This document shows positions 4,361-28,364 of a stretch of DNA of 64,000 bases, one piece after another. This DNA is from Vulcanimicrobiota bacterium (GTDB lineage Bacteria; Vulcanimicrobiota; Xenobia; Xenobiales; JADMJV01), in contig JBFWNU010000001.1 of assembly GCA_050250895.1 (NCBI GenBank), positions 256,001 to 320,000 of the forward strand. Direction: 5' to 3'. Position numbers and translations under genes: made by a program. Under the pieces are notes generated by a model. That model did no database searches. It was not told the DNA's origin and was given only the letters and a program-made list of their open reading frames with translations. Numbering within the stretch: position 1 is the stretch's first letter; each line of letters starts with the position of its first letter.

Positions 4361-4433
4361 CGTCAGACTAGAACAAGCCAGCCCGAAGCGCATCCCCGAC
4401 GGGTCGTAAACCCGCCTCCCCCGATCGGGGGAT

Positions 4434-5333: not shown

Positions 5334-5412
5334 ACATCCCCCTGGTGGCTGGATTCGCTCGCCCGGGTTCCAACCCTTCGCAAGCAGGGCGTTCAGGAGG
5401 GAACAGATTCGG

Positions 5413-6342
5413 ATGATCGAACGTTCGTCGCCGATGAGATTAATTTCCGATTTTTCGATCAAACAGATAGATTCCGACTTTCTCATTTTCAAGCGTTTTG
5501 GAAAGTGCGTCTGCTCACTAGAGGGCGACACCGCACGACTTTTCCAACTCTACTATGAGGGAAAGACCCGACACCAAGCCGAGTCAGAACTTGGGCTTCC
5601 ATGCCTGCAAGCGGCCGAAGAACAACTGCGCGACCAGGGGTTACTCGCCCCTGACGTGTTACCTAGAATTCCCCAGGACCAGTTGACGAGGATCGAGCTC
5701 GCAAACGAGGTGCTGGTCTATCACCCTGTGCAAGGTACAGCCATGCTCCTCAACCAGACCATCGCCGCGTTGCTACCACAATGCGATGGTGAGACTACCG
5801 TCGAACTTGCCATCGACGCACTGAGCAAGAAATTCGAGATCGCGCCCGATACGGCCGAAGAGCTGCTTTGGGCAAGCCTGAAGGCGATGCGTGACCGGGG
5901 GCTGTTCCTGGCGCCGTTGCACCACGGATTGTCGCGACGGGCGTTTCTGAGCAGGTGGGCGGCTGCCGCCGCCCTGTTCCCGGTGATCGTCTCGGCCGCC
6001 GCTCCGCACGCAGCCGTTGCTGACAGTACGACATGCATCGTCAATGGAGATGCGGGTTGCCAGGCTCTCTTTCCGGGCTCGACCAGAGTCTTCACGACCT
6101 GCTGTCCGTGCACGGCGAATGCGACTCCCCCATGCCCCGGCGATGCAAACTGTCAACGACCCTATTTGAAAGATGGCAACAACTGCCTGGATGACACCCC
6201 CGACACCGGCGGCCTGACGGGCTGCTTTGTCTACATCGACTCCGGCCACCCGTTCGCTAACGCCCAAGATTCGTGCGCGGACGCCCGCAACTCGACTCAA
6301 GCCGACACCTTTGGCGGCTATGCCTGTTGCCGATGTCCGTGA
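5413..6342 (+). CDS. Tandem PqqD/RRE domains + internal Tat-like leader + Cys-rich cargo
   Basis: AGGAGG at 5395-5400, ATG 5413 (alternative 5434). PqqD pattern EVLVYHP..G.AMLLNQT...LL..CDG..TV...LRDRGL, preceded by a more divergent copy, then SRRAFL...AVA and a 106-aa tail with 13 Cys. Confidence 0.8.
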   Translation: MIERSSPMRLISDFSIKQIDSDFLIFKRFGKCVCSLEGDTARLFQLYYEGKTRHQAESELGLPCLQAAEEQLRDQGLLAPDVLPRIPQDQLTRIELANEVLVYHPVQGTAMLLNQTIAALLPQCDGETTVELAIDALSKKFEIAPDTAEELLWASLKAMRDRGLFLAPLHHGLSRRAFLSRWAAAAALFPVIVSAAAPHAAVADSTTCIVNGDAGCQALFPGSTRVFTTCCPCTANATPPCPGDANCQRPYLKDGNNCLDDTPDTGGLTGCFVYIDSGHPFANAQDSCADARNSTQADTFGGYACCRCP

Positions 6343-7028
6343 AGACGCCCACTCCTGGCTCCGGGCGCTTTTCGAAGATTGGCCAGGGCCTCGTCGTTCA
6401 GCCGTTTTCCGACAGTATCGGCATCCTGGCTGATGAACCCTTGCTGGAGTCTATCGTGCAGGCCCTGCCGCCTGGCTGGAAAACACGAGAGACCGGCGAG
6501 TTCCTGGTCCGCATCGAACTGACCCAGGAGGGGGGTTCCTTCGTGATCAGGATCAATACTATCGTCAAGGCCAAAGCAAACAATCTCGCATCCGCACTGG
6601 CCCGGTTCCTCGAGGAGCTTCGCCTCCTGATCGTGCTACTCGAACATCAGCGCTTCTTTGTGAAAGCGCGACTATTGCGTCATCGCGAGGCAGCGGTGGT
6701 GGTGCTTGGTCAATTCGTGGCCGAGGTGGGGCTCAGCGAATGTAGCGCTGTTGCTTTTGATGTCAACGGTCGAGTCACCAGTCTAGAGGCTCCCGGGGAG
6801 CCGATGGAGGTGGTGGCCCTGGCTGAACTCGCTCCCTCGACGAGGGAGCCGTGGGAGAACCTCGGAGCGGCCAGAGCGGCGGCAAGCCTGTTCGAGGCAA
6901 AGCTGACCCCCCTGCGCGAAATCGGCCCCTGGCTTGACGTAATAGGCGACCTCGCCCAGGCTAGTCTGTGCCTTCGGATGCAACCCACGCCAGAGGCTTT
7001 CGAGCTACTCCGGCAAAGATTGGGCTGA
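6339..7028 (+). CDS. Degenerate HPr-kinase-related protein lacking the Walker A loop
   Basis: GTG 6339 overlaps the upstream stop (alternative ATG 6333). LPPGWK...LEELRLLI...RFFVKA......AVVVLG...AFDVNGRV resembles HprK-related kinases found next to PqqD genes, but there is no GxSGxGKS/T. Confidence 0.55.
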   Translation: MKTPTPGSGRFSKIGQGLVVQPFSDSIGILADEPLLESIVQALPPGWKTRETGEFLVRIELTQEGGSFVIRINTIVKAKANNLASALARFLEELRLLIVLLEHQRFFVKARLLRHREAAVVVLGQFVAEVGLSECSAVAFDVNGRVTSLEAPGEPMEVVALAELAPSTREPWENLGAARAAASLFEAKLTPLREIGPWLDVIGDLAQASLCLRMQPTPEAFELLRQRLG

Positions 7029-7085
7029 GTGCATCTCCCCCGAAAGAGGGAGGGAGAGACACATCGAGCATGAGAAGATGAAGGC

Positions 7086-7724
7086 ATGCCCATCCGTGTC
7101 TTGCTGGTCGACGATCACGCCATCGTGCGCGAGGGCCTGCGCATGCTGCTCAAGTTCGACCCTGACCTCGAGGTGGTGGGCGAAGCTTCAGACGGAGCCG
7201 AAGCCATCGAGCAAGCCCGTCAACTGACCCCCGACGTGGTCTTGATGGATCTACTCATGCCTCGGATGGACGGCATCGCCGCCACCGAGGCCATTCGCGA
7301 TGAGTTACCATCGGTGGAAGTGGTGGCCCTCACCAGCGTGCTCGAAGACGCCTCGGTGGTGGGCGCGGTCAAAGCCGGCGCCATCGGCTATCTGCTCAAG
7401 GACACCCGTGGAGACGATTTACGCCAGGCCATCAAAGCAGCCGCCGCCGGCCAGGTGCAACTGTCGCCGGCAGCCGCCAAGCGTCTGATGCGCGAACTCA
7501 AAGCCCCCTCGAGTCACGAGAGCCTGACCCCCCGCGAAGTCGAGGTCTTGCACCACCTGGCTCACGGTCTGTCCAACCGCGAGATCGCCGAACGCCTGGT
7601 GGTCGGCGAAGAAACGGTCAAATCTCACGTCTCGCACGTGCTGGCCAAGCTGGGGGCCCGCACCCGCACTCAGGCGGCCCTATTTGCCTGGCAGAAGGGG
7701 CTGGTGAGCCGCGATGCCTCTTGA
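7086..7724 (+). CDS. NarL/LuxR-family response regulator
   Basis: REC domain (VLLVDDH, DVVLMDLLMP, GYLLKD) and LuxR HTH (LTPREVEVL...SNREIAERL...TVKSHVS). Confidence 0.96.
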   Translation: MPIRVLLVDDHAIVREGLRMLLKFDPDLEVVGEASDGAEAIEQARQLTPDVVLMDLLMPRMDGIAATEAIRDELPSVEVVALTSVLEDASVVGAVKAGAIGYLLKDTRGDDLRQAIKAAAAGQVQLSPAAAKRLMRELKAPSSHESLTPREVEVLHHLAHGLSNREIAERLVVGEETVKSHVSHVLAKLGARTRTQAALFAWQKGLVSRDAS

Positions 7725-9174
7725 GCGCGCGCTCCAACTCGGCCCGACCTTCATGGCCGAATTGGCCAAGCTGACGCCAGCGGCCATGCTGTTGTTCGAC
7801 CAGCATCTCGAACCCATCGATTGCAACCCGGCCTTTGTGCGCCTGACCGGCCGCCAGCATGACAGTCAACCCTTCGAGTGCTTTAGCCGCGACGAACTCG
7901 AACGGGTGCGCGAGGCCCTGGAGCGACGCCAGGCCGATGAGCCGATCCGTTGGCCCGGGCGCGTCCAGACCCTGGACGGATACTGGCGCGAAGTCGAGAT
8001 TGTGGTCGTCTTCTTGATGGGCTACAGCCTGATGGTGATGCTCGACGTCACCGACTCGCGCCGGTTGGGGCGCAAACTCGAGGCTCTCAACCGATTCTCG
8101 AGCGCGGTGACGCTGTCCACCGGACTGGAAGCCACCCTGGATCTGCTGGCCGCCCAGGTGGTCGCGGCCACCGATGCGGTGGCGGCGGTGGTGCTGTTGC
8201 TCGACCCTGGCCCGCGAATCGATCGAGTCGGTCGAGCCGGCGTGCCCGGCGAGGTGCTAGAGGCGGCCTTTCAAATGTTCGCTAGCGGCATCAGGGTGCC
8301 CGCCTTCGAAGCCTACGAGACCGGCCAGACGCTGGTGGTGCCACCGCAGCAGCGAGAAGAGTTCTTGGCCGGCACTCGCCTGGGCGAACTGGTCGAGGCC
8401 CAGGGCTGGCAGCACCTGGTCTGCGTTCCCCTTGGCAAAGGGGTCATGAATTGCTTTTTCACCGAGCGCCTGCTGCCAACTCCCGACGACCTCTCGTTTC
8501 TCGAAACGCTGGGCCGATTCGCCACGGTGGCCATCGAGAACGCACGCCTCTTTGCCGAGGCCGAGGAGCGAGCCGTGGCCGAAGAACGCCAGCGGCTGGG
8601 AAGAGAATTGCACGACTCGGTCTCGCAGAGCCTCTACAGCATCGGCCTGGGCGCCCAGGCCGCCCTGGCCGCGCTCGAGGCCGGGTCACCCGACGAGACG
8701 CGCCAGACAATCGACTACATCCTGTCGCTGGCCCGCTCGGGTCTCGACGACATGCGCGCTCTGCTGTTCAAATTGCGACCCGAGGTCCTCGACGACGAAG
8801 GCCTGGTGGTCGCTCTCACCCGCCAGGCCGAATCGCTGCGGGTTCGTTACGGCTTGATTGTCGAGCTTGACCTGGGAGAAGAACCGCCACTTTCTCCCTC
8901 GATTCGACACGCTCTGTATCGCATCGCCAGCGAAGCCCTCCACAATGCCATCAAGCACTCGCGGGCCACCCGACTCAGAGTAAGTCTCAAGCAACGTCAA
9001 CGGCAGGTGGAACTCGAGATCGAAGACAACGGTGAGGGCTTCGTCCCTGAAGGTTGCAACGGAGGCCTGGGATTGACCACCATGCGCGAGCGAGCCGCCG
9101 AAGCCGGAGGGCAACTGCAGGTGCAGTCAGAGCCGGGTCAGGGAGCCCGGTTACTCACCACCATTCCGGTCTGA
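7714..9174 (+). CDS. PAS/GAF sensor histidine kinase (HisKA_3)
   Basis: ERQRLGRELHDSVSQ H-box, EALHNAIKHS N-box, EDNGEGF G1, GLGLTTMRER G2; AIENARLF at the GAF exit. Confidence 0.95.
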   Translation: MPLERALQLGPTFMAELAKLTPAAMLLFDQHLEPIDCNPAFVRLTGRQHDSQPFECFSRDELERVREALERRQADEPIRWPGRVQTLDGYWREVEIVVVFLMGYSLMVMLDVTDSRRLGRKLEALNRFSSAVTLSTGLEATLDLLAAQVVAATDAVAAVVLLLDPGPRIDRVGRAGVPGEVLEAAFQMFASGIRVPAFEAYETGQTLVVPPQQREEFLAGTRLGELVEAQGWQHLVCVPLGKGVMNCFFTERLLPTPDDLSFLETLGRFATVAIENARLFAEAEERAVAEERQRLGRELHDSVSQSLYSIGLGAQAALAALEAGSPDETRQTIDYILSLARSGLDDMRALLFKLRPEVLDDEGLVVALTRQAESLRVRYGLIVELDLGEEPPLSPSIRHALYRIASEALHNAIKHSRATRLRVSLKQRQRQVELEIEDNGEGFVPEGCNGGLGLTTMRERAAEAGGQLQVQSEPGQGARLLTTIPV

Positions 9175-9618
9175 GGTTCTGCCTCTAGAGGTTACAGAAT
9201 CCTGCCGGTCTGGGCGTCACGAAGGAGTCGCCGACGATGGTCGTAATATTGTTCACCGCAGTCAGCGGGCCGCCATTTAGCATATCGAAGCGCTCGACAT
9301 CACAGTTAACGAAGCCGAAGTCGATCATGTCGAAGATGCAATTGAGGATGTCAAGGCAAACCCCAGTGCGACGAGCAGTCGAACCAGGTTCTTAAGGTAA
9401 TTCATTCACAACCCTTTCGAGTAAAGTAGACACAGGGGTTATCTTAACAAGCCTACCTTAAGGGTCTGAAAGAGCCTCGGCCATGTGGCCACCATGAATA
9501 GCCACATGGCGGTTTGCGCCTGGGAGGAAGGATTATTGTCCTCATCCCGACAATGAAGAAGCGCGGCCGGAGGACACGACCTCTCAAACAAGTCGCGATA
9601 AACTATCGGGGGAACCTC

Positions 9619-10338
9619 GTGCATCTCAAAATGAAGCTGAGCCTAGCTTTGCTCTTCCTACTTACTCTTTGCAAACCTTCTGTCGCAAAAGACAAAGACT
9701 ATCTAGAGCTACGAGTTAACGAGCAAGACTCTCATCGCTATATTCGCATCGAGAGCAGCGGGGCGGTGGAATTCACTCGTAGCAACTGGTACGAAGTTCT
9801 GGAATTTCGCAAGGGTCGCATCGATCCTGACCGAGTGGCCAGCTTTCTGTCCACCTTGAGGAAGGCCGGCCTGGAGGGACTGGCCGCCACTTACGCCCCT
9901 CCCAGAGGGGGCCTTCCCAGCGTAGATCCCTCCCAGGCCCGGCTCGAATGGTCACGGGCCGGCCAGAAGAAGGTCATCGTCTACAGCCTGCGCGACTCAC
10001 CTCAGAAGCTTCAAGAGATTCACCAGAAAATTCTCAACTACGTCTACGAGTTTCCTGACGGGGCCCCGCCCGGGGACTATCTCAGAACCTATGAATTGAC
10101 CGACCATTCTTTGCTTGGCGAGAACAAGCCGGTGCACGCAACCGTGGCCCAACTGGCCAAGCACCCAGCCCTGAGAATGTCGATCGAGCAGCCGGGTCGA
10201 CTGGTCAGAGCCGGGCCTCCGGGCCAAACCTGGGAACGCAAGAAGTCGACCATCGAACCAACCGGATTCTTTCTCGAGCTGCAGGATCGAATCCACCGAG
10301 TGCTGGTCCTCGAGTATCGACCAAACAAACCGAAATAG
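9619..10338 (+). CDS. Secreted protein, DUF6438/emfourin-like N-terminal region
   Basis: Signal peptide [19 protein letters not shown] (start GTG 9619 or ATG 9631); pattern YIRI..SG.V.F...G.I.......L...L..L...Y......D....L.....G..K.I.Y....P..L.EI; ends 8 bp before the CLCA-like gene. Confidence 0.55.
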
Positions 10339-10346
10339 GGGGAAAC

Positions 10347-13193
10347 GTGAAACAAAACATATGGATTTTGCCAATCCTGCTTGGGTTGCTGGCGCTGCCA
10401 GGCTGGGCGGGAGACGGCAACATCGACAACGGAAAACTCAACCTGACCGTCTTCTTCAACTACGACGAGCAGGACAAAGCCTCTTGGGAACAGCTCTTCA
10501 AAGATGCCAACCCGGTGATGTTCAAGGCCACCGACGGGCGCCTGACCTTCGGTGAGATACGCTTCACCGACTGCCCTGGCGCTCGCGCCAAGGCCGACAT
10601 CATCATCAACGATGGCGCCGGACGCGCCTTCGCCGACGGGGGAATCCCCGGCCTGGGAACCAACGGGCGCTTCATTCAGCTCTACAAGAACTCGAACAAG
10701 AACGAGCCGAAGACTCTGGTCCACGAACTTGGCCACTACGCCTTCGGCTGCTACGACGAATACAAAGGCCGTCGCTGGGCCTGGGCCGGAATGCCGCCCG
10801 CCTGGCAAACCGAGACCACCGGAGGTTCGGTGTGGTTCGACGGCACCGGCGACCCTGCCACCAACCCCTGGTTTTGCGCCACTCAGGCCGAAGCCAACGG
10901 CACGACCTCGTGCATCATGGACTTCGCCAACGGTTGGAAGCCGGGTCGCATGAACTTCTGTCTCGACGGCGCTCACGCCGATCACCATGTGACCAGCCGC
11001 GTGTCGGGCTCCAAGCGCTATATCACCGACCAGCAACAGGTCAACGGCCATGCCTGCTGGAACGAGGTGGCCGCGGCCGTGGGCGGAAACGTTCCCGCCT
11101 CACCTCCTAACAACACCAGCGCGGTCAACGCCAACCCGACCTTCAAGACGGTGGACGGCGACGCCTACAACATCTGTATCGACCGCTCCGGCAGTATGTC
11201 CGGCGACCGCATCGTCAAAGCCCGTCTGGGCGGCACCACCGTGGTCGACCTGGCTCGCACCATGATGGGCATGATGCCTGGCGACAACCTGGGCGTCACT
11301 TCCTTTAGCTCAGGCGCCTCGACCAACTTTGCGGTGACCGAGATGACGGCCGCCACCCAGGCCGCTGCCAAAGCCGCCATCGGAACGATCAATGCTAGTG
11401 GCGGAACCGACATCGGAGCCGGTGTGCGCCAGGCCCTGGCCGACTTGATGACGGCCCAGACCAACAACGGCGAAGAGTTCTGCTCTCGCACCGTCTTTCT
11501 GCTCTCGGACGGTCAGGATAGCACCAACGTGGCCGCGCTGGTGGCCGACATCCAGGCGGCCAAGGCCACCGTCCACGCCATTGCTATCGGCTCGGGCGCC
11601 GACTCGGCCAAACTCTCGGCCATCGCCACCGGTTCCGGCGGCAACTTCTTCTTTCTGCCCCGCCAGCAAGAAGAGGTCTCGGCCCGCGGCGTGTTCTTTC
11701 GCGTAGGCGAAGAAGCTCTGCCGGGCATCATGGCCACCCTCTTCAACGAGGCGCGGGGTGGCAGCCAGGTGGCCGGTATCGACGGCCAGGCTATCGCCGG
11801 TCAATCGACCCAACACACCTTGACCGTCGACGGCTTCGTCGAGCGGGCTACCTTCTTGCTGGTGTCGGCTAACGAAGCCGATCCGCTGAGCCTGGCCCTG
11901 ACCGACCCCAACGGCAATAACATCGACCTCAACGCACCCCCAGCGGGCGTCACCGTCTCGATCCAACAGGGCGCCGTGATTGTCGACGTCGTCAATCCCG
12001 CCGGTGGCGACTGGATCGCCACCGTCGATGCCACGGCCACGGCCGCCGACCAAAACTATGACCTGCGCTTGCTGGCGATTTCGCCCGGTCTCATCGTGAC
12101 CGCCCAGGTCGACAGCGCCGCCGTCACCTTCCCGGCACCCATTCTGGTTACCGCCCGGGTTTCGGCCGGCCAGGCCCTGACCAACATCACCCATACCGTC
12201 GAGGTCTCTGACCCGTCCGGCAATATCACCAATATCACCCTGAGTGACGACGGCGACCTGTCCAATGGTGACCTGGTAGCCAACGACGGTATCTACTCAG
12301 GCTATTTCAAAGACTACACCGACAACGGAACCTATACATTCACCATCACCTACGACGGCTCGAACGCCCAGTATGCCACCGGCATCCTGCCCGCCGAGCC
12401 GGGTGGAGACCCATTCAACACCGGCAGCGTGCCCAGTTTCACCCGAGTAGCCTCGGTGGCCACCCTGGTCGACCTGGTCCCCGGCGGAGGCGGCACGGCT
12501 CTGCTGCCTCCCGCCAACGTCCGCCAAACGACCGACGACTCCGACTCGATCACCATTACCTGGGATGACACCAGCGGCGGGACGGCCTCCTTCAAGATCC
12601 AGCGCAGCTCGGACGGAGTGAACTTCCAGACCATCGACACCGTGGGTCCGGGCACGACCACCTACACCGACAACAGCCCCGGCGCAGGCAACTTCTTCTA
12701 CCAGGTCGTGGCTAACGTCACCGGCGTGGGCGACTCGCCGCCGTCCGAAGTGACCCAGGTCAACTTTGAAGACCTGGAGATGGCTCTGCAAGCCTTCCTC
12801 ACCGGGGGCGGCCAGACCGGCGGTGGAGTGAGCGGTTCGAGCGGTGGCACCAACCTCGACGACTTCTCTGGTTCGTCGTTCGGTTGCTTCATCGCCACCG
12901 CTGCTTACGGCTCGTACCTCAATCCCCATGTGGCCGCCCTGCGGGACTTCCGCGACGACTATCTCTTGACCAACCGCCCCGGCCGGGCCGTGGTCGACTT
13001 CTACTATCGCAACTCGCCGCCCATCGCCGAGAGGATCAGCCAATCGCCGATGCTGATGGGCCTGACCCGATTGGCACTCACCCCCATCGTCTACTCGGTG
13101 GAATACCCGCTGTTGCTCGTGTTGGCCCTCGGCTTCGTGCCCGCCTGCTGGCTATATCGACGCCGCCGACGCCTGGCACTTGCCAGACAGTAG
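10347..13193 (+). CDS. CLCA-like secreted zinc metalloprotease with VWA, beta-rich and FN3 domains and a CFI-box C-terminal domain
   Basis: Signal peptide; [14 protein letters not shown]; MIDAS DRSGSM...GGT...LSDG; NDGIYSGYF; FN3 (ITWDD...FKIQRS...YTD...YQV); [11 protein letters not shown]...LRDFRD...YY..SPPIA, TM helix and RRRRR. Confidence 0.88.
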
Positions 13194-13229
13194 TCGTCAG
13201 ACGGTAGTCGTCAGACGGTAGTCGTCAGA
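13184..13229 (+). repeat. Tandem 14-bp repeat (CAGACGGTAGTCGT x3.3)
   Basis: Copies at 13184 (one mismatch), 13198 and 13212, plus a partial copy at 13226; includes the stop codon of the CLCA-like gene. Confidence 0.9.
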
Positions 13230-13260
13230 GCCGCCCGCGAACGCGGGCGGCTCTTTCCTT
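13227..13260 (+). terminator. Intrinsic terminator
   Basis: AGAGCCGCCCGC-GAAC-GCGGGCGGCTCT hairpin followed by TTCCTT. Confidence 0.8.
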
Positions 13261-13486
13261 CTGGGCCCCGGAGGGCGGGCTGGGTGGGCCCGCTGGCAAC
13301 GGGGTGTGCCGAGTGGCCGGGCTAGGCCCGGCCGCCGCGGGTCGGCGCGATTCGGCTCAAGACGCCGCCGGCCAGGTGGTGCCGGATTCGGCACGTGGTA
13401 GCGCCGTCCTCGGGCGAGGTTGCTCTTCCGTGCGGAAGTGGCCCGGGCGGCGCCGGCCGCCGCGGGTTAGCCCGGCTGCGGGCCGG

Positions 13487-15685
13487 CTAGCGGGTGAGGA
13501 TACCGAGCAGGCCTACCGGCTTGCCCGCGTAGATGTGCTCGAGAAACTCGGTGGGAAGGCCTTTGGTGAAGTGGGCGCCCTGGCTGCCGAAGCCGCCGGC
13601 GTCGAGCCTGGTTCCTAGCATCGTCAAAGTCCGGCGCAGCTGGGCCAGTTCGGCTTGAGTGACGGGAGTGAGGTTGTCGTCCCAGGCCTGAGGAGCGGCA
13701 CTGCCGTCAACGCCCAGCCGATCGAGCCCCGAGCCGAACTCTCTACCCGCGATGGCGCGGGCTTGTTCGAGGCCTGAGGCAGTATAATCGCGGTGGGCTT
13801 TCTCTTTCTCGATGGGATAGTATTTCTCGCGGGCGGCCTGGCGCTCTTTGGCATAGATGCCAGGGCGCTGCTTCTCGGCCTCGGCCCAGCCCTGCGATTC
13901 CATCAGGCCGCGCCCGCCCGGGAAGGCAGCCAGCAGACCCAACAGGGGACTATTCTCGATACGTCGATCGATCTCGCTGCGGATGCGCTTGGAGGCCTCG
14001 GCCCGAAAACGCTTGTCGAACTCCTTGCCGAAGCGCTTGTCGAACTCGCCATCGAAGCGTTGGTCAAACTCCTGATCGATGCGCTTGCTGACTTCCTGGC
14101 GCAACTCGCCGTCGAGCTGACGCACGTTGTTCCCGACATCGCCGCGGTCCCAAACACCGTCTTTGCCCGCTAGCTTGCGCAGGGTGCCAAGAGCGGTCTT
14201 GACTTCTTGCCTCTCGCCAGAGTTGAGTGGTAGCGCCTTAGAGGCGGCCTGATAGAGGCCGGGCTCCTGGCCGGCGACACCGACCAGACCCAGTGGCTTT
14301 TCTTGTTGGATAGCCTTGAGGAAATCGACCGACAGCCCTTTGGCGAAGGTGCCTTTGGGCAGCCCCAGCTGGCCGCTTTGCTTCTGCAGACCGGTGAGCA
14401 CATCTTTGAGTTCGGTCATCTCCTTCTCGCTCACCTGGGGCAAGCGCTGGCCCAGGGCGCGTCGGCGCGAGGCGGGGTCGAGGGTCTGGCTGGGCTGCAT
14501 GCCCATCTGGCGAAAGCCGTCGTTGAGGTCGAACAGTGCTCGTTGCTGACCCGTGCGCACGGCCTCGTCGCCATACTGCTTGTGCGCTCCCTCGCGCTGG
14601 GACTCAGCCCCCAGACCGTAGAGGCCGCGGACCACCGGTTTGAGCAGGGGCAGGTTCCTCGACACCCAGCTCTGGTCGGCCTGGCGGCCCACTTCCTGGT
14701 CGAAGCGGCGGTCGATCTCACGATGAGCCCCCTTCTCGATGGCCCCTCGCAGTTGGACCAGGTTGTTGGCCCGGTCGCGGGTATCCCAGACACGGTCTTC
14801 CCCAGCCAACTTTTCGAGGGTCTTGATGGCCCCCGGTAGTCGCTTCTTGAGGTCGCGGGTGAGGGGCAGCGCCTGCTCGCCCTGCTTGAGAATGCGCAGG
14901 CGGTCCGCCATGGGCAACCGGGAGAGGTCCTGGGGTTGGGCGATGGGTGCGGGCTTTTGTCCGTCGGGGCCCTGGGCTTTGACGGCGGAACCCCAGCCCT
15001 GTTTGTCGCCGGGTAACGGATTGGCCAGACCGTTGAGGGCATCTCGGGTGGCCCCCTCCACCCGGCCGTTGGGCTCGAGGCCCTGTTTGGTTTGGAAGGC
15101 CTTGACGGCGGCCTCGGTGTTGCGTCCGAAGGCGCCGTCGACCTTGAGCTTCGAGCCCCCAAAGTCGTTGAGCATCTGCTGCAGATTGGCGACGTGCTCA
15201 CCCAGCCCCGGCTTGTCTTTCATGCCCGTGCGCAAGGCGGCCTCAGGCAGGTCTAGTCGGTGTTCGGGGGAAAGGCCCCGATTGAGCCGGTCGAGGGTGC
15301 GAGAACCTACCTGGCCGTTAGGCCGAATCCCGTTTTCGTGCTGAAACTCGGCCACCGCCCTCTCGGTGCGCGGGCCGAACTTGCCATCCACCTCGAGCCC
15401 GGCCTCGGCGCGTTGGTTGAGCAATTGCTGCAGACGACGAACCCTGGTTTCGTCCTGATCGCCCTGCTTGAGGTTGCGATGCGGAAGGTCTAGTTGCCGC
15501 TTCTTGTTTTCGGCCGGCTGGTTGGCCCAGGACAGGTCCAGGCCGCTGGTCGATTTTTCGCGGCTGCGGCTCTCGTCTGAAAAGGCCACCCGATCGCTCT
15601 TGGCGCTCGGCTTTTTCTTGGGCCGAGGAGCCAGCGTGGCTGGGGTATGATTGACAGCGGCGGCGGCCTGACTGGTGACCTGCAT
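13487..15685 (-). CDS. Peptidoglycan-binding domain protein (2x PG_binding_1) with a duplicated unknown C-terminal domain
   Basis: VRRLQQLLN...VDGKFGPRTERAVAEFQ...G.VG..T and a second copy VDGAFGRNTEAAVKAFQ; two copies of TL.KLAG.D.VWD..D..NN..QL and F.KGL...FL..I...KP.GL.G. Confidence 0.85.
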   Translation of the reverse strand: MQVTSQAAAAVNHTPATLAPRPKKKPSAKSDRVAFSDESRSREKSTSGLDLSWANQPAENKKRQLDLPHRNLKQGDQDETRVRRLQQLLNQRAEAGLEVDGKFGPRTERAVAEFQHENGIRPNGQVGSRTLDRLNRGLSPEHRLDLPEAALRTGMKDKPGLGEHVANLQQMLNDFGGSKLKVDGAFGRNTEAAVKAFQTKQGLEPNGRVEGATRDALNGLANPLPGDKQGWGSAVKAQGPDGQKPAPIAQPQDLSRLPMADRLRILKQGEQALPLTRDLKKRLPGAIKTLEKLAGEDRVWDTRDRANNLVQLRGAIEKGAHREIDRRFDQEVGRQADQSWVSRNLPLLKPVVRGLYGLGAESQREGAHKQYGDEAVRTGQQRALFDLNDGFRQMGMQPSQTLDPASRRRALGQRLPQVSEKEMTELKDVLTGLQKQSGQLGLPKGTFAKGLSVDFLKAIQQEKPLGLVGVAGQEPGLYQAASKALPLNSGERQEVKTALGTLRKLAGKDGVWDRGDVGNNVRQLDGELRQEVSKRIDQEFDQRFDGEFDKRFGKEFDKRFRAEASKRIRSEIDRRIENSPLLGLLAAFPGGRGLMESQGWAEAEKQRPGIYAKERQAAREKYYPIEKEKAHRDYTASGLEQARAIAGREFGSGLDRLGVDGSAAPQAWDDNLTPVTQAELAQLRRTLTMLGTRLDAGGFGSQGAHFTKGLPTEFLEHIYAGKPVGLLGILTR

Positions 15686-15741
15686 GCTCTCAGAATAGCA
15701 CCCGCTTCTTGAACGGACTTTGTAATGGCCGGTCGGGTTTG

Positions 15742-17904
15742 TTACGAATCGTGTCCAGCCTGATCAATGCGACTCAGCAGATGAAAGGCCTGACCGAGCA
15801 AGTGTCCGCGCACCACCAGAGTGCTGGCCAGGTGACGGTCCTCGAGCCGGTAAAGCTGATAGACGGCCCGGCGCCGCACGAACTGAGTGTAGACCGAGAC
15901 AGGGCCGAATTGCCGCTCGCTGACCATGGCCGCTTCGACTTTATTCAGCTGAGCCTGGACTAACGATTCATAGCCCATCAAGTCCAGGTTCGGCTCGAGT
16001 AGCTCCTCGATGGCGTCCCGCGAGGTGTCGAGCAAAGCCTTCAACTGTGCGAAGCTGGCTCGAGCCCGATACCTGGCCCACTCGTCGAGAGGCAGTCCAC
16101 CCTTCCCCTCTTGCAACAGCCATTCTAGAAAACGCCAATGAACGAACTCGTCGCGCTCAGGCAGCGGGATGGCCTGCAAAAGATAGCCCAAAGCTCGTTC
16201 TCGGGCTTGACCGGCCGGCCCTGAAAAGCGGGCGGCAAAGGCGAGCTCTTCGAGCAAGTCGCGATCGTCAGGCTGAGCCTCGAGGGCCGAGCAGAGTTGC
16301 TCGTACGCCCTCGCATCGTCGCCCTCGACCCTCAGCATCTCGGCCTCGAAGCGATGGCCCCAGGCTTTGAGGCGGTTCTCCTGCAAGCTGGCGCTCAGAG
16401 CGCTACCATGGCGTTGGCGGGCCGAAGCCAGGTCTCCTCGAGCCCGGTCGACCAGGGCCGCACGGTGCAAGACCCAGAGTCGGGCCCGAGGCTGCATAGG
16501 TCGGCCCAACAACTCTTCGAACCCGGGTCGGGCGAGCTTGTGAGGCGCTTCCAGGCTCGCTAGAATCAGCTCGAGTTCGTTGAGTTCGAGTTCAGCTTCG
16601 GGCAGTTCCAGTTTGTCCAGTAGCCCGTGAAGGGGTTGGCAAGCGCCCCGGGCCCTTTCGAACTCGAGCTTCTCCAGGTGGGTCTTGATGCCGGTTACCA
16701 TGCTCGAGCGGATGGTTAGTCGCAGATGGCGGGCCCGCCCGCTGAGTCCCATACTATCGAGGTGGTCGGCCAGGGCCAGGTTGCTGTCGAGATCTTTCTG
16801 CCTGCCGGTGGCCAACCCGTGATGAGCCAACCAGTGCTCGAGCACTCCCAGGTTCTCGGCCGCGAGTTGCTCGGGCGGCTGGGCCAGCACCGCCTGCACG
16901 TCGGCCACCAGATACTCGCGATCGCTGCCAGCGAGTGCGTCGGGATTGCGACACACCTCGACCAGCAGGTCGACGGCCCAGGCTTTCAGCTGGTCGACGA
17001 CGGCCGTATAGGTATCGTTCTCGACCAGGTCAGAATGAGACAGGTTCTTCTTCAGCTCGGGAGCTACCACCAGACCGGTCAGACAGTTGAGGCCGAGCAA
17101 CTTGTGAGGGCGACGAAACAGGATGCCCTGATGGATGAAGGCCAGGCCTCGACTGGTTCCACCCAGGGCCAGCACGGCAGCCACCGGGGCTGGCCCGGCG
17201 GGCGCCGAGGGGAAGCGACCATCGGGTAGCGCCGAAACCTTGGCCCGGGGGTCGAGGGATGGATAAATCTTGACCCCCATGCACGGAGAGGGCAACTGGA
17301 TAGGCTCGTTGAGAAGGTCACCGTCGACTTTGAGCTGCAAAGGGGCATGGCGACACACCCTCATAAGGTTGGCCAATTCGGGATGAACCTTGATCACCCG
17401 GCTGGTCAGACCAAACCCTTTGTCCACCACCACCCGATTGAGGGACAGGCCGGTGCGCGGCTCGAGGCTCTCGATTTTCTGCTGACTGCCTCGCCAGGTC
17501 AGCCGATTGGCCTGGTCGAGGCGGTAAGATTCGACGATGATCTGCTTTGGCTCGATGGCCTGAGCAGCGTGCAGCCCTACAGCCAGTTCGGTGAGGTGGC
17601 GCGGCATGCCGGTGGTGTCATAGAGAAACCCCGACAAGTGCTCGAGCTGCTCGGCGGTGGCCGCCTCGCCGTCATAGAGAAACTCGCAACGGGTGAGACT
17701 GCTTTTCACCTCGAGAAAAGTCGCCTGTCCGGCTACGGCCGCGGCCACCATCTGCACCACGTAAAGCCCTGGGTCGAGCAGCTGAAATTTGCGCAGCTTC
17801 TCGTCAGCCGCCTCGGAGCTGATGGTAAAGCGCCCCACCGATTCGAACTCGCCCCCCTGCGCAAACTCTTGTAGATACGTGTTCAGGGCATCGATCTCGG
17901 GCAT
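15742..17904 (-). CDS. GHKL/HSP90-like N-terminal domain protein with C-terminal TPR-like helices
   Basis: ATG 17904 (MPEID...). S.G.FTI..E.A.EKL.KFQL.DP..YV.Q.V.AAV...A...YDG...LAVGL.AA is a GHKL-like pattern; helical repeats C-terminally. Confidence 0.55.
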   Translation of the reverse strand: MPEIDALNTYLQEFAQGGEFESVGRFTISSEAADEKLRKFQLLDPGLYVVQMVAAAVAGQATFLEVKSSLTRCEFLYDGEAATAEQLEHLSGFLYDTTGMPRHLTELAVGLHAAQAIEPKQIIVESYRLDQANRLTWRGSQQKIESLEPRTGLSLNRVVVDKGFGLTSRVIKVHPELANLMRVCRHAPLQLKVDGDLLNEPIQLPSPCMGVKIYPSLDPRAKVSALPDGRFPSAPAGPAPVAAVLALGGTSRGLAFIHQGILFRRPHKLLGLNCLTGLVVAPELKKNLSHSDLVENDTYTAVVDQLKAWAVDLLVEVCRNPDALAGSDREYLVADVQAVLAQPPEQLAAENLGVLEHWLAHHGLATGRQKDLDSNLALADHLDSMGLSGRARHLRLTIRSSMVTGIKTHLEKLEFERARGACQPLHGLLDKLELPEAELELNELELILASLEAPHKLARPGFEELLGRPMQPRARLWVLHRAALVDRARGDLASARQRHGSALSASLQENRLKAWGHRFEAEMLRVEGDDARAYEQLCSALEAQPDDRDLLEELAFAARFSGPAGQARERALGYLLQAIPLPERDEFVHWRFLEWLLQEGKGGLPLDEWARYRARASFAQLKALLDTSRDAIEELLEPNLDLMGYESLVQAQLNKVEAAMVSERQFGPVSVYTQFVRRRAVYQLYRLEDRHLASTLVVRGHLLGQAFHLLSRIDQAGHDS

Positions 17905-18015
17905 GGCCGATGGGTTCGGCCCCGCCCGGGTGCGTCCTCCGGATGGGGTCTGCCTATCCGCCCAGGTCTCGCCTGGCGCCTCGGCTCGGGTTAGGCTGAG
18001 AGGAAGGGAGGCCTT

Positions 18016-18174
18016 ATGAATTGGCTTGCTCAACTCGGAATCTTCATCCTCGTGCTGGCGGCGCTCAAGTATTTACTGGGCCTGCCCATTTCTATCGTGG
18101 GCAGCCTGGTCCTGACCGTGCTGCTGACGCTCGTTTTCGCAGGGATCAGCAGCTTCAGTCGACGCGACACTTAG
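18016..18174 (+). CDS. Small two-TM membrane protein (52 aa), not in the ORF track
   Basis: GGGAGG RBS 5 nt upstream of ATG 18016 and TAGGCT -10 at 17992; MNWLAQLGIFILVLAALKYLLGLPISIVGSLVLTVLLTLVFAGISSFSRRDT. Confidence 0.75.
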   Translation: MNWLAQLGIFILVLAALKYLLGLPISIVGSLVLTVLLTLVFAGISSFSRRDT

Positions 18175-18216
18175 CCGTTTAAGCTCTGATTCAGCCCCGA
18201 TTGGGATAGTCCAGGT

Positions 18217-18768
18217 GTGAGGATCCCATCGGTCAAAAAAGACCAGCTGGCCGGTTATCTCCAACGGCAGCGCCAAACGTTGCAAGAGAGCGACCTGCCG
18301 GAGCCCCGTCGAGGGCAGGCGATTCGACTGGTCGAGCGCGATCTAGCCCTGCTTCAGGGCGCCCGCGGCGAGACGGTCGAGCAAATGCGCGCGAACCTGG
18401 CTCTGGGACGCAGCCTGGTTCACGGAGCCGCACTCACCATCGGCGCCGGGGCCGTGGCGGGGGCCTGCCTGGCCCTGACCGGAGCTATCTCGGGTCGCGA
18501 TTTCTCTCTCGCCTTCGCAGGGCTGGGCGCCCTGGGTGTGGCCACCATGGCCGTGGCTACCTTTGGGGTGCAAAAGCCCGCCGTGGGGGAAGTACTCGAC
18601 AGCCTGGACTCGCGCATCCAGAGCTTGCAGGCCATCGCGGTGGACTCCCGCCACCAGGTCGAAGAGCTCCTCCAACCCGCGCCCGTCGCCGATATTCAGA
18701 TCGACGACGAAGGCGTGCAGCTGGGCGATGTCTTTCTGCCCATCGAGCGCGACAACAGCTATTTCTAA
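18217..18768 (+). CDS. Orphan protein with Gly/Ala-rich TM hairpin and the shared C-terminal motif
   Basis: MRIPS start, two hydrophobic segments, C-terminal ADIQIDDEGVQLGDVFLPIERD. Confidence 0.75.
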   Translation: MRIPSVKKDQLAGYLQRQRQTLQESDLPEPRRGQAIRLVERDLALLQGARGETVEQMRANLALGRSLVHGAALTIGAGAVAGACLALTGAISGRDFSLAFAGLGALGVATMAVATFGVQKPAVGEVLDSLDSRIQSLQAIAVDSRHQVEELLQPAPVADIQIDDEGVQLGDVFLPIERDNSYF

Positions 18769-19424
18769 CAGTCGTGGGTTATCGTGGTGGTAAAGGTGTC
18801 GGTGTCGGTTGGCCCACACGGTCCCTGCACCCGGAAAGTCACGTCAGTGCTACCCGCGCTTAAGAAGGTGAAGCTGAACATCGATTGGGTGGCGCTGGAG
18901 AATTCGAAAGTCCCGTCATCACCGATGTCGACGGCATACTCGCAAATCATGCAGGTGTGGGTCGAGCCGGAGAGGTCCCAGGTATGCGTCCTGGTGCCCG
19001 TGCAGGTATCCGTGAACCCAAGGGTGGGAGGGGCGGTGGGACAGGGGCAACTCGAGGCCGAAGCGGCCGCCGCCGGAGTGGTCACTGACGCCATCAGCGG
19101 CAGGACGGCCGCAGCCGCTCCCCAGCGCCGCAAGAAATCGCGCCGACTGACCTGACTGGGAAAGCAATCCGAGACCAGTCCTCGGCCGTGCAGTTCGGTT
19201 AAAGTCATGGCCACCAACTCATCAGCGGCTTCTGAGGGCAGCCCGAGGTGGTGGGCCAATTGCCGGGCCACCTCGGCCCGGCTGCGCCGACCGTCGCTGA
19301 ATCCCCACACCAGGGCGGCGGTGGGATTGAGGTTGTGGACCTTGCCCCCATCGGGCTCCATCAACAGCACTTCTTCACCGACCTGGGTGGCCAGCACCCG
19401 GGTATTCGCTTTCGGCATCTTCAT
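18765..19424 (-). CDS. PqqD/RRE domain + internal Tat-like leader + PKD-like Cys/Thr-rich cargo
   Basis: QVGEEVLLM....KVHNLNPTAALVWGFSDGRRS...LHGRGLV is canonical PqqD; then SRRDFL...ASA; DLSGS...EYAVDIGDDG...TF.SAG..DVTFRV....G.TDT is PKD-like. RBS GGAG. Confidence 0.85.
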   Translation of the reverse strand: MKMPKANTRVLATQVGEEVLLMEPDGGKVHNLNPTAALVWGFSDGRRSRAEVARQLAHHLGLPSEAADELVAMTLTELHGRGLVSDCFPSQVSRRDFLRRWGAAAAVLPLMASVTTPAAAASASSCPCPTAPPTLGFTDTCTGTRTHTWDLSGSTHTCMICEYAVDIGDDGTFEFSSATQSMFSFTFLSAGSTDVTFRVQGPCGPTDTDTFTTTITHDC

Positions 19425-19439
19425 TCTATTGTTCTCCTA

Positions 19440-21872
19440 TTAGGGTCGAAATCTCAAGGTGGTGCCGCTGGGGACCGGGGCGGTCCATTGAGTGCCCTCG
19501 GACCCGTCGGCGTTCTCGATGCCGATGGTCATTGCTCCCCCTTCATCGGCATCGGGGTGTCCGAAGTCGGTATCGATGAAGTGGAAGAAGATATCGTTGT
19601 TGCCATTGTCGAGCATCTCGAGCTGGAAGGTGCCTTCGCCCACGGCCAGATAACCCACCTGAGAGCCGCTGACGAAAACCGGCAAGCCATAGCCGACGTT
19701 CTTCCACTCGATGGCCAGAAAAGTACCATCGCCCTCGAGACGGACCTCGGTGTTGGCCGTGGGATGCAGCGTACCCCAGAAGGGAGCGAGCAGATTGTCG
19801 GGGTTGGTGGCCGACGGCAGTTGCTGGTTGCTGAGCGTGAAGGTCGAGGTGTCAAACTGGGCGATGCCAAAGTTGGTCACCGCCAGGAGAGCGTCGGCGA
19901 TGTCGGTGCCGTAGAACTCGAAGTGGAAGCCTGAAGAGACAGTGAAGGCCGCGATCCCGAAGGGGCTGGCGCCCCCGGGATTGAGCCCGGAAAGACTGGC
20001 AATGGCGCCGGTGGTGAAGGTGCGAGGCGAGAAGGGCTGTTGGGTGACCTGATAGACGACGCCGGCCCCATTGGTGGTAAAATCGGCCGTGTTCGAGGTG
20101 TCGCTACCGGCGTTGGTGACGGCGATGGTGCCCGTTCCGGTCGCCACCCCGCTGGGGATGGTGGCCATGATCGTGTTCTCGTCCCAACTGTCGATGGTGA
20201 GGTTGACGGCCGGGTTGACTCCGATGGTCAGACTGACCGTGCCGGTGGTCGAGCCGAAACCGACCCCGGTGAGGGTGACCTGGGTGCCCTCGCTGCCGCC
20301 CTCGGGCGCGATCCCGTCGAGAAAGATGGTGTGGGTGATATCGGCCGAGAGCGCCGCATTGGCATCGAGGCGTCCACCGCTTTGACATTGGCCCGCATAG
20401 TTGCCGGCGCCTGCGTTGGCCGACTCCATCAAACGTTTGCGCACGTCAGAATAGCTGATGCCGGCGAAGTTCGCATAGAGCAGGGCGGCCGCGCCCGCCA
20501 CGTGGGGAGCGGCCTGAGAGGTGCCGACGGCTCCTCCGATGCCGGTGTCGCTGGTGTGGGAAATCCCCAGGATAAAATAACCGCTGCCACCGGTCGGTGC
20601 GGTCGCGCCCGAATCGGCGGTGTCGCCACCGGGGGCGAACAGATCGACGGCGGTAGCGCCAATATTGGAGAACTCGGCCACCGTGTCGGCCGGGCTATGG
20701 GCCCCCACGGTGACGATGTTGGGAGACTTGTAAGCGGCCGGGAAGCGAGGGCTGCTCTCGAGATCGCTGGCCTGGTTACCCGAGGCGCACACACAAAGAA
20801 TGTTGCTGTCAGCGGCCCGATCGATGGCGTCTTTGAGAGCCCGACTCGCGCTATTAGAAGACAAACTCAGGTTGATGACGTTGGCGCCATTGTCGGTAGC
20901 ATAGTCGACCGCCTTGACGACGGCCGCCAGTTCGACCGAATTGGAAGCGCCCGCCACTTTGAGAATCATCAGTTGACAATCATAGGCGAGACCTACGATT
21001 CCGGTATTGTTTCGTTCGGCCCCAATGATGCTGGCCACGTTTCCACCGTGGGAATTCTCGTCGGTGACGTCGCCGTCGTCGGTGCTGGTGAAGCGAAAGT
21101 CGGCGCCGTTGATATCGTCGACATAGCCGTTGCCGTCATCGTCGATGAGATTGCCCGCCGTCTCGCCGGGATTGACCCACAGGTTGTCATCGACCTCGAC
21201 GTGGGTGGTCCTGATCCCCGTATCGATGACGGCCACCACCACCCCCGAACCGGTCGAGGTGTTCCAGGCATCGCAGGCTCGCGAATCCACACCGGCAATT
21301 CCGGCTGGAAAGTTACTGTCTCCCGGCACATTCGAGGCCCCATCGTTGTTGAGACCCCATTGCTGCCCGAAAAAGCCATCGGTGGGCGCCACCGTATCTT
21401 CCAGTTCCATCAGATAGTTGGGCTCGACATAGTCGACATCGGGGTTAGCGCTCAAGGCGAACACAGTGGCCGGAACGGTCTGGCCCGAATTGATCTCGAG
21501 GACTCCGGCCTCGATGCCGTCGAGCACGTCGACCACGGTGGTATCCACGCCGGTCTGCTGCGCCAGCACTTCGAGGCGTTGCCCGCGCTGCAGGACAGAC
21601 ACTTCTCTGCCCAGGGCCGAGCGAGGGTTGATCCCGTTCTTGAACTTGACGATGACCTGGTTTTGGACATAGGCGCCTCGCGGCACCAGATCAGCCCGAA
21701 CGTTCGAGACGAAGGGTCCTGTCAACACAGCTGGATTGGCCACCGCAGCCGTCCCGCCCGCAGATGGCTCGGACGACGTTCCGCCTGCCGTGCCCCCGCT
21801 GCCGCCTCCGCAGCCAGCCAGAACCAGAACAAATAAGGCCGCCAAGAGCCTCGCCCAATGCCTCTCCATCAT
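19440..21872 (-). CDS. S8 (subtilase) serine peptidase lipoprotein with prodomain and IPT/TIG domain
   Basis: Lipobox VLAGC; triad VIDTG / SHGGNVA / GTSQAAPHVAG; oxyanion ASGN; IPT (P.GG..GT.VTLTG.GFG...SW....I...IP). Confidence 0.93.
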   Translation of the reverse strand: MMERHWARLLAALFVLVLAGCGGGSGGTAGGTSSEPSAGGTAAVANPAVLTGPFVSNVRADLVPRGAYVQNQVIVKFKNGINPRSALGREVSVLQRGQRLEVLAQQTGVDTTVVDVLDGIEAGVLEINSGQTVPATVFALSANPDVDYVEPNYLMELEDTVAPTDGFFGQQWGLNNDGASNVPGDSNFPAGIAGVDSRACDAWNTSTGSGVVVAVIDTGIRTTHVEVDDNLWVNPGETAGNLIDDDGNGYVDDINGADFRFTSTDDGDVTDENSHGGNVASIIGAERNNTGIVGLAYDCQLMILKVAGASNSVELAAVVKAVDYATDNGANVINLSLSSNSASRALKDAIDRAADSNILCVCASGNQASDLESSPRFPAAYKSPNIVTVGAHSPADTVAEFSNIGATAVDLFAPGGDTADSGATAPTGGSGYFILGISHTSDTGIGGAVGTSQAAPHVAGAAALLYANFAGISYSDVRKRLMESANAGAGNYAGQCQSGGRLDANAALSADITHTIFLDGIAPEGGSEGTQVTLTGVGFGSTTGTVSLTIGVNPAVNLTIDSWDENTIMATIPSGVATGTGTIAVTNAGSDTSNTADFTTNGAGVVYQVTQQPFSPRTFTTGAIASLSGLNPGGASPFGIAAFTVSSGFHFEFYGTDIADALLAVTNFGIAQFDTSTFTLSNQQLPSATNPDNLLAPFWGTLHPTANTEVRLEGDGTFLAIEWKNVGYGLPVFVSGSQVGYLAVGEGTFQLEMLDNGNNDIFFHFIDTDFGHPDADEGGAMTIGIENADGSEGTQWTAPVPSGTTLRFRP

Positions 21873-21961
21873 ACCTCCCACAGCCCCTCCAGGGTCTGCC
21901 AGAAGTGTTACTTTGTATGTTCACCGAAAAGTCCCTAGTTTGTATCTAAAATATGTAGGTT

Positions 21962-22426: not shown

Positions 22427-22500
22427 GCTCGAGTCTTGGACCCGACACCATCCGCCCCCTCTGCAAGAGGGATCTGCTCAGACAGACCAAAGCCGGGGCC

Positions 22501-23982: not shown

Positions 23983-24020
23983 ACTGAACTCACAGACCAC
24001 GGACAGATGCGTGACCTTCG

Positions 24021-24048
24021 ACCCGCCCGAATGGCGGGTTCTTTTTTT
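24021..24048 (+). terminator. Intrinsic terminator between convergent genes
   Basis: ACCCGCC-CGAAT-GGCGGGT followed by TCTTTTTTT. Confidence 0.75.
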
Positions 24049-24640: not shown

Positions 24641-24713
24641 TTCTATTTTTTCGCCCAGCGCGGCTAGGGACCCTCCAAGAGGACTTCGACCTTCCGCGCG
24701 CCAAGTAGTTAGA

Positions 24714-25574: not shown

Positions 25575-25578
25575 CCCG

Positions 25579-28014: not shown

Positions 28015-28020
28015 GCCAGG

Positions 28021-28362: not shown

Positions 28363-28364
28363 CC

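Follow-up and report, generated by a model that had tools for sequence, protein, structure and literature searches.

A PqqD-type RRE domain ahead of a predicted internal Tat-type signal in a large family of probably exported, mostly cysteine-rich bacterial proteins

Introduction

The window considered here, that is, the whole 64,000-nucleotide stretch of DNA that was analysed (positions 256001-320000 of contig C1 from genome G000 of a Vulcanimicrobiota bacterium, 9.5 Mb in 17 contigs, ~63% GC), contains two genes in which a PqqD-type recognition element for peptides that are ribosomally synthesized and then modified after translation (RiPP recognition element, RRE) is followed by a linker resembling a twin-arginine translocation (Tat) signal, and the linker by a tail. 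Why should a peptide-binding domain stand ahead of an export signal? The protein family is large, bacterial, and unstudied, and this order of domains is an unusual design for secreted proteins. RREs are used as class-independent markers in genome mining for RiPPs, and a family of thousands of cluster representatives with the RRE placed before an export signal and no maturase close by would either mislead such mining systematically or reveal an RRE function not seen before. Work on Tat would gain from it many natural examples of internal signals located behind a folded domain.

Internal signals as such are known. The sequence-only reading of this locus held that a Tat signal is normally N-terminal, but an internal one behind a folded domain is not unprecedented: a 2026 review (Bruser & Sanders) distinguishes five classes of Tat substrates, the fifth of which (Class V) has an internal, non-cleaved signal following an N-terminal domain that is folded and lies on the cis side, and names FecR as an example of this internal-signal class (Passmore et al., 2020, via PMC13673990). 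According to a 2025 survey of RREs, 21% of PF05402 proteins exceed a discrete RRE in length without showing any further Pfam domain, and the survey leaves them uncharacterised (PMC12710340). In our literature search, we found no description of a PqqD/RRE domain combined with a Tat or other signal peptide, and no paper dealing with both PqqD and Eremiobacterota; PF05402 proteins of this kind may be among those given in Fig. S6 and the tables of PMC12710340.

Judging from the sequence features described below, we consider it probable that the members of this family are exported, with an internal Tat-type and probably cleaved signal located behind a cytoplasmic RRE.

Domain Organization of the Two Genes

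Gene 1 (5413..6342, plus strand) encodes 309 amino acids from an ATG preceded by a Shine–Dalgarno-like motif, the frame being open from 5260 to 6342. Its product comprises a degenerate first RRE-like winged-helix domain (5440..5637, residues ~10-75), seen as a second stretch matching the family hidden Markov model (HMM), a second RRE/PqqD domain (5674..5907, residues ~88-165), a Tat-like linker (5932..6027, residues 174-205) with S-R-R-x-F-L, an h-region, and P-x-x-A-x-A-x-S, and a Cys-rich tail of 104 residues with 13 Cys that ends in Y-x-C-C-x-C-x (6028..6339). Gene 2 (18765..19424, minus strand) encodes 219 amino acids with a single RRE/PqqD domain (19161..19391, residues ~12-88), a Tat-like linker (19053..19148, residues 93-124), and a 95-residue tail with seven Cys (18768..19052, residues 125-219). 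Both linkers share S-R-R-x-F-L, and the RR pair, at residue 175 of gene 1 (counted from 5413) and residue 94 of gene 2, lies behind one or two folded domains rather than at the N-terminus.

The assignment of both products to PqqD/RRE, made initially from the letters, is confirmed by PF05402, which scores above its 23.4-bit cut-off in gene 1 (34.7 bits, E 2.2e-8, residues 150-215 if numbered along the 360-aa frame) and gene 2 (43.1 bits, E 5.2e-11, residues 18-84). None of the specific NCBIfam PqqD models (HPr-rel-A, ScmD, lasso, PQQ) exceeds its own cut-off in either gene: TIGR04353, the model of the HPr-rel-A PqqD chaperone, gives 20.2 and 21.2 bits against a cut-off of 35, and although it matches 14 of 17 members at E<=1, the one displayed score is 21.1 bits, below the cut-off.

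Comparison of the two genes by BLASTP shows 32% identity over 101 residues of RRE plus linker (E 2e-12). Hence the 30-residue linker, described at first as nearly identical in the two genes, is homologous but far from identical (16/30 residues), whereas the claim that the tails are unrelated holds for this pair (no significant likeness, best E 1.8). The beta-rich tail of gene 2 weakly resembles PKD, with an under-cut-off match to PF00801 in the Pfam scan (E 0.068) and an Atlas structural lead, to be read as a lead only, to PKD domains of S8 peptidases (TM, template modelling score, 0.37).

Family Size and Distribution

An iterated HMM search with RRE plus linker over all 85,839 stop-to-stop open reading frames (ORFs) of the genome identified 28 paralogues, both window genes included, whose cargoes and neighbours were then compared; the family profile gives 31 matches at E<=1e-5 if RRE-less remnants are included. 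An HMM of the linker alone recovers, from the same ORFs, 23 RRE-bearing members (gene 2 with E 1.5e-13) and three RRE-less relatives at E<=0.0052, while the best unrelated ORF reaches only E 1.5, and thus the linker matches are beyond chance. A profile built from 17 paralogues and compared with 1.84 billion cluster representatives matches 8,423 of them at E<=1e-3, of which 4,815 pass E<=1e-10 and 56 pass E<=1e-30. The idea of a modular prefix, derived originally from two genes, is thus upheld by 28 paralogues in this genome and thousands of cluster representatives outside it. All 150 best matches reach the linker, 148 of them with RR and 142 with A-x-S; a Cys-rich tail is found in 133 and two RRE-like domains in 16.

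Among the sampled relatives, the family occurs in 15 of 31 genomes, G000 included, and in 21 of 151 genomes phylum-wide. Since the other 14 family-bearing relatives hold only one to six copies, the ~28 copies in G000 are a lineage-specific expansion. The source names of homologues are uninformative (e.g., "hypothetical protein"), as are the cluster names. The Atlas offers leads, and only leads, to comparable clusters of the PqqD family in Acidobacteriota, Verrucomicrobiota, Thermomicrobiota, and Actinomycetota; in one of them, some members have AhpC-TSA/Redoxin. Other searches returned little: merely 4 and 17 matches in a word-indexed protein search, no related locus with gene 1 as the query, and one related locus with P0171 as the query, the family member at that locus being identical in linker and tail to that of the same-family relative G009. 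No convincing DNA motif was found upstream of the 28 paralogues (the best 7-mer occurs in 7/28, p 0.001 before multiple testing).

The Linker as a Tat-Type Signal

The linker is the best-conserved region of the proteins, with mean pairwise identity 0.44, compared to 0.31 in the RRE and 0.285 in the tail (0.168 with Cys disregarded), and its conservation among homologues is also seen in the best 150 matches. Counts were made on 104 aligned rows for the n-region, and on 101 distinct sequences for the c-region and spacing. In the n-region, the first Arg is present in 104/104 and the second in 102/104, Ser or Thr precedes the pair in 76/104, Phe or Leu stands two positions after it in 81/104, and Leu follows in 79/104, commonly with Lys or Arg next. 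This agrees with the Tat consensus S/T-R-R-x-F-L-K/R. In the c-region, Pro occupies position -7 in 94 sequences and -5 in 71, Ala is at -2 in 100, and Ser at 0 in all 101, with a variable residue between the invariant Ala and Ser. The distance from RR to this Ser is 31 residues in 48/101, and the median length of the uncharged stretch is 21 residues, ~7 of which belong to the c-region, leaving ~14 for the h-region. Weak hydrophobicity of the h-region, together with the small residues of the c-region, is as in Tat signals. Signal peptidase I requires small residues at -3 and -1; if cleavage occurs after the Ser, the invariant Ala and Ser would take these two positions.

The reading of the linker as a Tat signal is also supported by the TIGR01409 TAT_signal model, which at E<=1 matches 8 of the 17 members tried (best 5.8e-5), and by the genome, which has one TatC and three TatA-like genes. 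The linker is family-specific rather than generic, since the linker-only HMM retrieves no other Tat signals of the genome. This last result counts in favour of Sec/SRP (signal recognition particle) insertion, with the linker being a generic internal signal whose Arg residues merely satisfy the positive-inside rule and with Tat not involved. Sec is the usual route for Cys-rich cargo in a reduced and unfolded state, and an RR-less subfamily retains the remainder of the prefix. Under a charge-only rule, however, Lys and Arg should interchange, and Lys occupies only 2 of 208 RR positions; moreover, the positions on either side (S/T, F/L, L, and K/R) agree with the Tat consensus, and the TAT_signal model matches about half of the tested members. 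We regard transport by Sec alone as very unlikely.

The RR-less subfamily, from another family of the same phylum, comprises L061, L065, L066, L068, and L069 (genomes G046, G062, G107) and has a conserved P-L-V-T-S-I-V-A-P-T-A-A-K-A followed by Y-G. Two of its tails, ~160 residues long and without a Pfam family, have G-C-V-L at the start and S-H-N at the end, which we take to be reminiscent of a Hint/intein-type domain.

Two further ideas were tried and set aside. The presence of TatC cannot serve as a natural experiment, as it is found in 10/10 genomes, those with the RR-less subfamily included, and is thus uninformative. A separate internal start before the RR fails as a general explanation, as 10 of 27 members have no ATG, GTG, or TTG in the preceding 15 codons.

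Cysteine-Rich Tails and Other Cargo

In 24 of the 28 paralogues the tail contains at least four Cys (7 to 22 Cys in 53 to 151 residues); three others have Thr-rich, Cys-free tails of 12 to 24 residues, and one is degenerate. Most Cys-rich tails are mutually homologous and form a novel domain of 80-150 residues, in which 10 Cys and one Tyr are invariant over 15 aligned tails, C-x-x-A-R is near-invariant, and the C-terminus is Y-x-C-C-x-C. Gene 1 belongs to this domain; the tail of gene 2 lies outside it. The profile of the Cys-rich tails has no match among the PDB sequences at E<=1, and Pfam gives nothing meaningful on the 15 tails. The expansion of a Cys-rich domain without a Pfam or PDB-sequence match to ~24 copies within a single genome hints at an extracellular function that is diversifying.

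The number of Cys in the tail is even in 92 of 101 sequences (p 1.8e-18), in 122 of 133 in the best-150 set, and in 21 of 24 paralogues of the genome. The tails contain 14% Cys, are rich in Gly, Ala, Thr, Ser, and Asn, and poor in hydrophobic residues and Lys. The even counts point to disulfides formed outside the cytoplasm. Disulfide pairing fits better than four-Cys metal sites because many counts are 14, 18, or 22; for the same reason, these not being multiples of four, ligation of Fe-S clusters was rejected.

Other cargo is also found behind the prefix: a 480-residue vWF_A + VWA + YfbK_C tail in L055, MsrA in P0167, Gly-rich tails of ~190 residues, and several unassigned ones. In L055 (G002:C11, ORF L055:1279-3243, 655 aa), two RRE-like stretches and an RR linker precede an entire protein of vWF_A, VWA, and YfbK_C domains, and this domain composition shows that the prefix can carry large, ordinary folded cargo; VWA/YfbK and MsrA are of the kinds that could act outside the cytoplasm. 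The proposal that the cargo diversifies freely thus holds in so far as the tails vary (Cys-rich, Thr-rich, VWA/YfbK, MsrA, Gly-rich), but not for gene 1, whose tail lies in the conserved Cys-rich domain.

Cleaved Signal or Membrane Anchor

Several observations weigh against export with cleavage of a Tat-type signal. Disulfide-rich cargo is atypical for Tat. The two window genes have odd numbers of Cys (13 and 7) and are two of the three odd paralogues of the genome. The 150 sequences were picked by a profile of RR-bearing paralogues, and the RR invariance is thus partly a matter of ascertainment. With TIGR01409, gene 2 scores 15.9 bits (residues 92-119), just under the 16.7-bit cut-off, and gene 1 only 10. 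The RR-less subfamily keeps the RRE, h-region, and an A-K-A site with T-R-A-x-L in place of the motif, in genomes that still have TatC; taken as a whole, the prefix can thus do without the twin arginine. Hydrophobicity of the h-region is at the borderline: in 66/101 sequences the best Kyte–Doolittle window of 19 residues is at least 1.6, so that a membrane anchor is possible. Finally, the review gives the signal of FecR, the known Class V substrate, as uncleaved (PMC13673990).

The last two points also favour the alternative that the linker is an uncleaved signal-anchor: the proteins would be bitopic (N-in/C-out), with an RRE in the cytoplasm that binds a peptide or protein there and a Cys-rich part outside it that acts as a sensor or adhesin, and would signal across the membrane in the manner of FecR. 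FecR, uncleaved, represents the only documented class of such topology (PMC13673990), and two-thirds of the linkers reach the membrane-helix threshold. Context adds a homologue in a relative, L060, located downstream of an extracytoplasmic function (ECF) sigma gene, and LuxR-type regulators near 5 of the 28 loci, including gene 1. On the other hand, small residues at -3/-1 and Pro at -5/-7 are typical of cleaved signals, ~14 residues are short for a membrane helix, no regulator is conserved beside the paralogues, the Thr-rich tails of 12-24 residues would make poor sensors, and the Pfam scan of both window proteins at E<=1 yields no FecR family match, only PqqD and weak PKD. Anchoring without cleavage is, in our estimate, unlikely.

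The RRE Domain and the Proposed Mechanism

The AlphaFold2 (AF2) model of gene 1 (309 aa, 104-row alignment) has mean pLDDT (predicted local distance difference test) 87.5 and pTM (predicted TM) 0.67. Both RRE units are above 90, the linker forms a helix at 175-188 and a five-residue strand at 192-196 (pLDDT 66-77), and the tail is small and mixed (73-91); a model of the tail alone from 15 sequences (54.7) is too poor for a fold search. Foldseek aligns the second RRE of gene 1 with the lasso B1 protein TbiB1 in complex with its leader (5v1u_B; TM 0.80 on the target, root-mean-square deviation, rmsd, 2.2 A) and also lists the nuclear magnetic resonance structure of PqqD, 5sxy; it also matches ThcOx, which has a tandem-RRE architecture, over 215 columns. 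In the full model, nothing but the RRE matched known structures. The complex prediction for the RRE (86-168) and linker (169-208) of gene 1, with score 0.02 and mark 0.32, is neutral on binding.

The RRE is acidic: its median isoelectric point (pI) is 4.8 and exceeds 7.5 in only 2/101 sequences. For this reason, a ToxR-type DNA-binding membrane regulator was considered unlikely. Putative roles of the RRE, both plausible, would be to bind its own linker in cis or to present the precursor to tailoring enzymes.

Exported proteins with a cleaved Tat-type signal would then be formed as follows. One or two acidic winged-helix PqqD-type RREs would be made first and stay in the cytoplasm; the family-specific signal would emerge next, with S/T-R-R-x-F/L-L-K/R, an h-region of ~14 residues (L-P-x-I/V-x-S), and the c-region P-x-P-A-A-A-x-S; and the cargo, mostly the novel disulfide-rich domain of 80-150 residues, would come last. 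TatBC would read the RR motif and insert the signal as a hairpin, leaving the RRE on the cis side, like the N-terminal domain of FecR and other Class V substrates. Being small, hydrophilic, and still reduced, the cargo would cross the membrane, signal peptidase I would cut after the invariant A-x-S, and the cysteines would pair outside. The RRE most likely would act before export, either holding the beta-strand-prone part of its own signal or offering an RRE:leader unit to a partner enzyme, and this is the least-supported step of the mechanism. Its stronger form, in which the precursors are a widespread, so far undescribed class that is self-chaperoned, that is, the cis RRE grips the strand part of its own Tat signal and, until the cargo is ready, gates targeting or hands the precursor over to tailoring, is a tentative idea, which we would sooner doubt than expect; the prefix would then be a transferable cassette through which disulfide-rich mini-proteins and other cargo are exported and matured.

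Gene Neighbourhoods and Possible Maturation

Near gene 1, an operon of two ABC ATPases, an HlyD-type adaptor, and a TolC-like outer-membrane factor (46..5017, minus strand) is divergent from it, while a 251-aa ORF without a Pfam match (6273..7028, plus strand) lies directly downstream, where a LuxR-type response regulator and a histidine kinase are found as well. Gene 2 is preceded, at a distance of 15 bp on the same strand, by an S8 subtilase with a lipoprotein-type N-terminus (L-A-G-C; 19440..21881, minus strand) and followed directly by a 763-aa ORF without a Pfam match (15742..18033, minus strand). The subtilase is a possible co-transcribed extracytoplasmic partner of gene 2, the pairing not being conserved across the family.

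Over the 28 loci, the most frequent neighbours are ABC ATPases (6), an unannotated family (5), LuxR-type regulators (5, gene 1 among them), and S8 peptidases (3). No neighbour family is common to more than 6 of the 28 loci, with no conserved maturase, regulator, sigma factor, or TonB-receptor; by a rough estimate, the counts are at about the chance level for abundant families, and this may apply to the ABC ATPases. The only regulator-type context seen outside the window is that of L060, where the family member follows the ECF sigma gene and a 748-aa protein of unknown function on the same strand (L060:4888-7745).

The neighbourhoods bear on the possibility that the proteins are RiPP-like precursors with a cis RRE and leader, the core being modified in the cytoplasm by enzymes encoded elsewhere before export, a scenario that may coexist with export by a cleaved Tat-type signal. 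RREs are known as leader-binding domains, which take up the leader as an extra beta-strand, and the fold match is to TbiB1 bound to its leader. Scattered paralogues with a constant prefix and variable tails are a feature of multi-precursor RiPP systems, and this family resembles them; some relatives have core-like Cys-rich tails of 28-32 residues. For the Thr-rich subgroup this is the strongest of the readings; its members stand in same-strand runs with potential tailoring genes: C1:897351 and C1:897834 (897351-898277; L073:8367-9281) have an S-adenosylmethionine (SAM)-type methyltransferase ahead and two Sulfotransfer_3 genes after them, and C1:499816 (499816-500277; L074:7862-8281) lies between a P-loop kinase-like gene, with AAA_33/Zeta_toxin Pfam matches, and a weak Sulfotransfer_3 match. 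By gene content, this looks like RiPP-like tailoring, with sulfation or phosphorylation of Ser/Thr possible. DUF2282 RiPP precursors, which combine a Sec signal with an RRE-bearing partner according to the survey, offer a partial parallel (PMC12710340).

For the family as a whole, the same data are less favourable. The frequent neighbours belong to abundant families, and no maturase recurs in more than six loci. The absence of radical SAM, YcaO, and lasso cyclase, remarked on in the sequence-only reading, is confirmed by Pfam for 46..29378 of the window, i.e., within ~10 kb of either gene. Of the homologues with short Cys-rich tails, L075 has neighbours of leucine-catabolism type, and the two ORFs near L076 are an esterase and one without a family. 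Most tails are homologous domains of 80-150 residues with a fixed Cys framework, not hypervariable cores, and VWA/YfbK and MsrA are ordinary proteins. As an explanation of the entire family, RiPP-like maturation is distinctly unlikely. The rivals and the preferred reading, export with a cleaved internal signal, partly overlap.

A link to an MNIO/bufferin-type pathway was rejected: the single MNIO + DUF2063 pair of the genome lies on another contig, which has no family member.

Comparison With Known Systems

The closest precedent is FecR. Proteins of this family share with such Class V substrates, as described in the review, a folded N-terminal domain, an internal RR signal, and a C-terminal domain, of which the first would likewise stay on the cis side and the last be moved across the membrane (PMC13673990). 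They differ in that the N-terminal domain is PqqD/RRE rather than the sigma-regulator domain of FecR, the signal ends in an invariant, peptidase-like A-x-S site while the Class V signal is given there as non-cleaved, in most cases a novel Cys-rich mini-domain forms the cargo, and no sigma factor or TonB-receptor neighbourhood is conserved. According to the same review, Tat tolerates small unfolded hydrophilic substrates (PMC13673990). Whether Tat can export disulfide-rich mini-proteins in reduced form is a question for which the family would be a natural test case.

Discrete RREs (PqqD; the lasso B1 protein TbiB1, 5v1u) belong to the same sequence family, PF05402, and have the same fold. Unlike the domain studied here, they are stand-alone proteins of ~90 residues or enzyme fusions and bind the leader in trans within a biosynthetic cluster, whereas here the RRE forms one protein with an export signal and cargo, upstream of both, and a maturase is not conserved nearby. 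TorD, DmsD, and NapD are cytoplasmic proofreading chaperones that bind Tat signal peptides before export. The likeness to them would be a functional analogy only, RRE–linker binding being putative, and they have unrelated folds, act in trans, and serve cofactor enzymes. The self-chaperoned scenario, if true, would give an RRE its first role beyond classical RiPP biosynthesis and provide Class V Tat substrates with a counterpart that is cleaved.

A parallel on the RRE side is an RRE system whose precursors have an export signal where a classical leader would be: according to the survey, DUF2282 precursors have Sec signal peptides, and DUF2063 proteins are their RRE partners (PMC12710340). There, however, the RRE resides on a separate partner of the MNIO enzyme, and the signal is of the Sec type; the MNIO + DUF2063 pair of this genome is unlinked to the family.

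Related ORFs in the Genome

The near-duplicate ORFs C1:3776587-3777177 and C1:3779151-3779762 have the same h/c-region and Cys-rich tail without an RRE; D-I-D-F-L replaces R-R-x-F-L, and the N-terminus is acidic. Either these are copies that have decayed, or they may represent a form that does not depend on an RRE. The ORF C2:177841-178338, with a good linker (T-R-R-x-x-L ... A-A-A-S), no RRE, and a 12-residue tail, is probably what remains of a gene; it lies just downstream of two tandem paralogues, C2:173738 and C2:176013.

Sulfotransfer_3 genes also occur within ~5 kb of four further PF05402 hits (C1:2165323-2166130, C1:3477173-3482356, C4:127917-129097, and C5:244080-248404), three of which are ORFs of stand-alone size (113-119 aa), while the C4 hit is in a 353-aa ORF; this suggests a pairing of PqqD and sulfotransferase genes in the genome.

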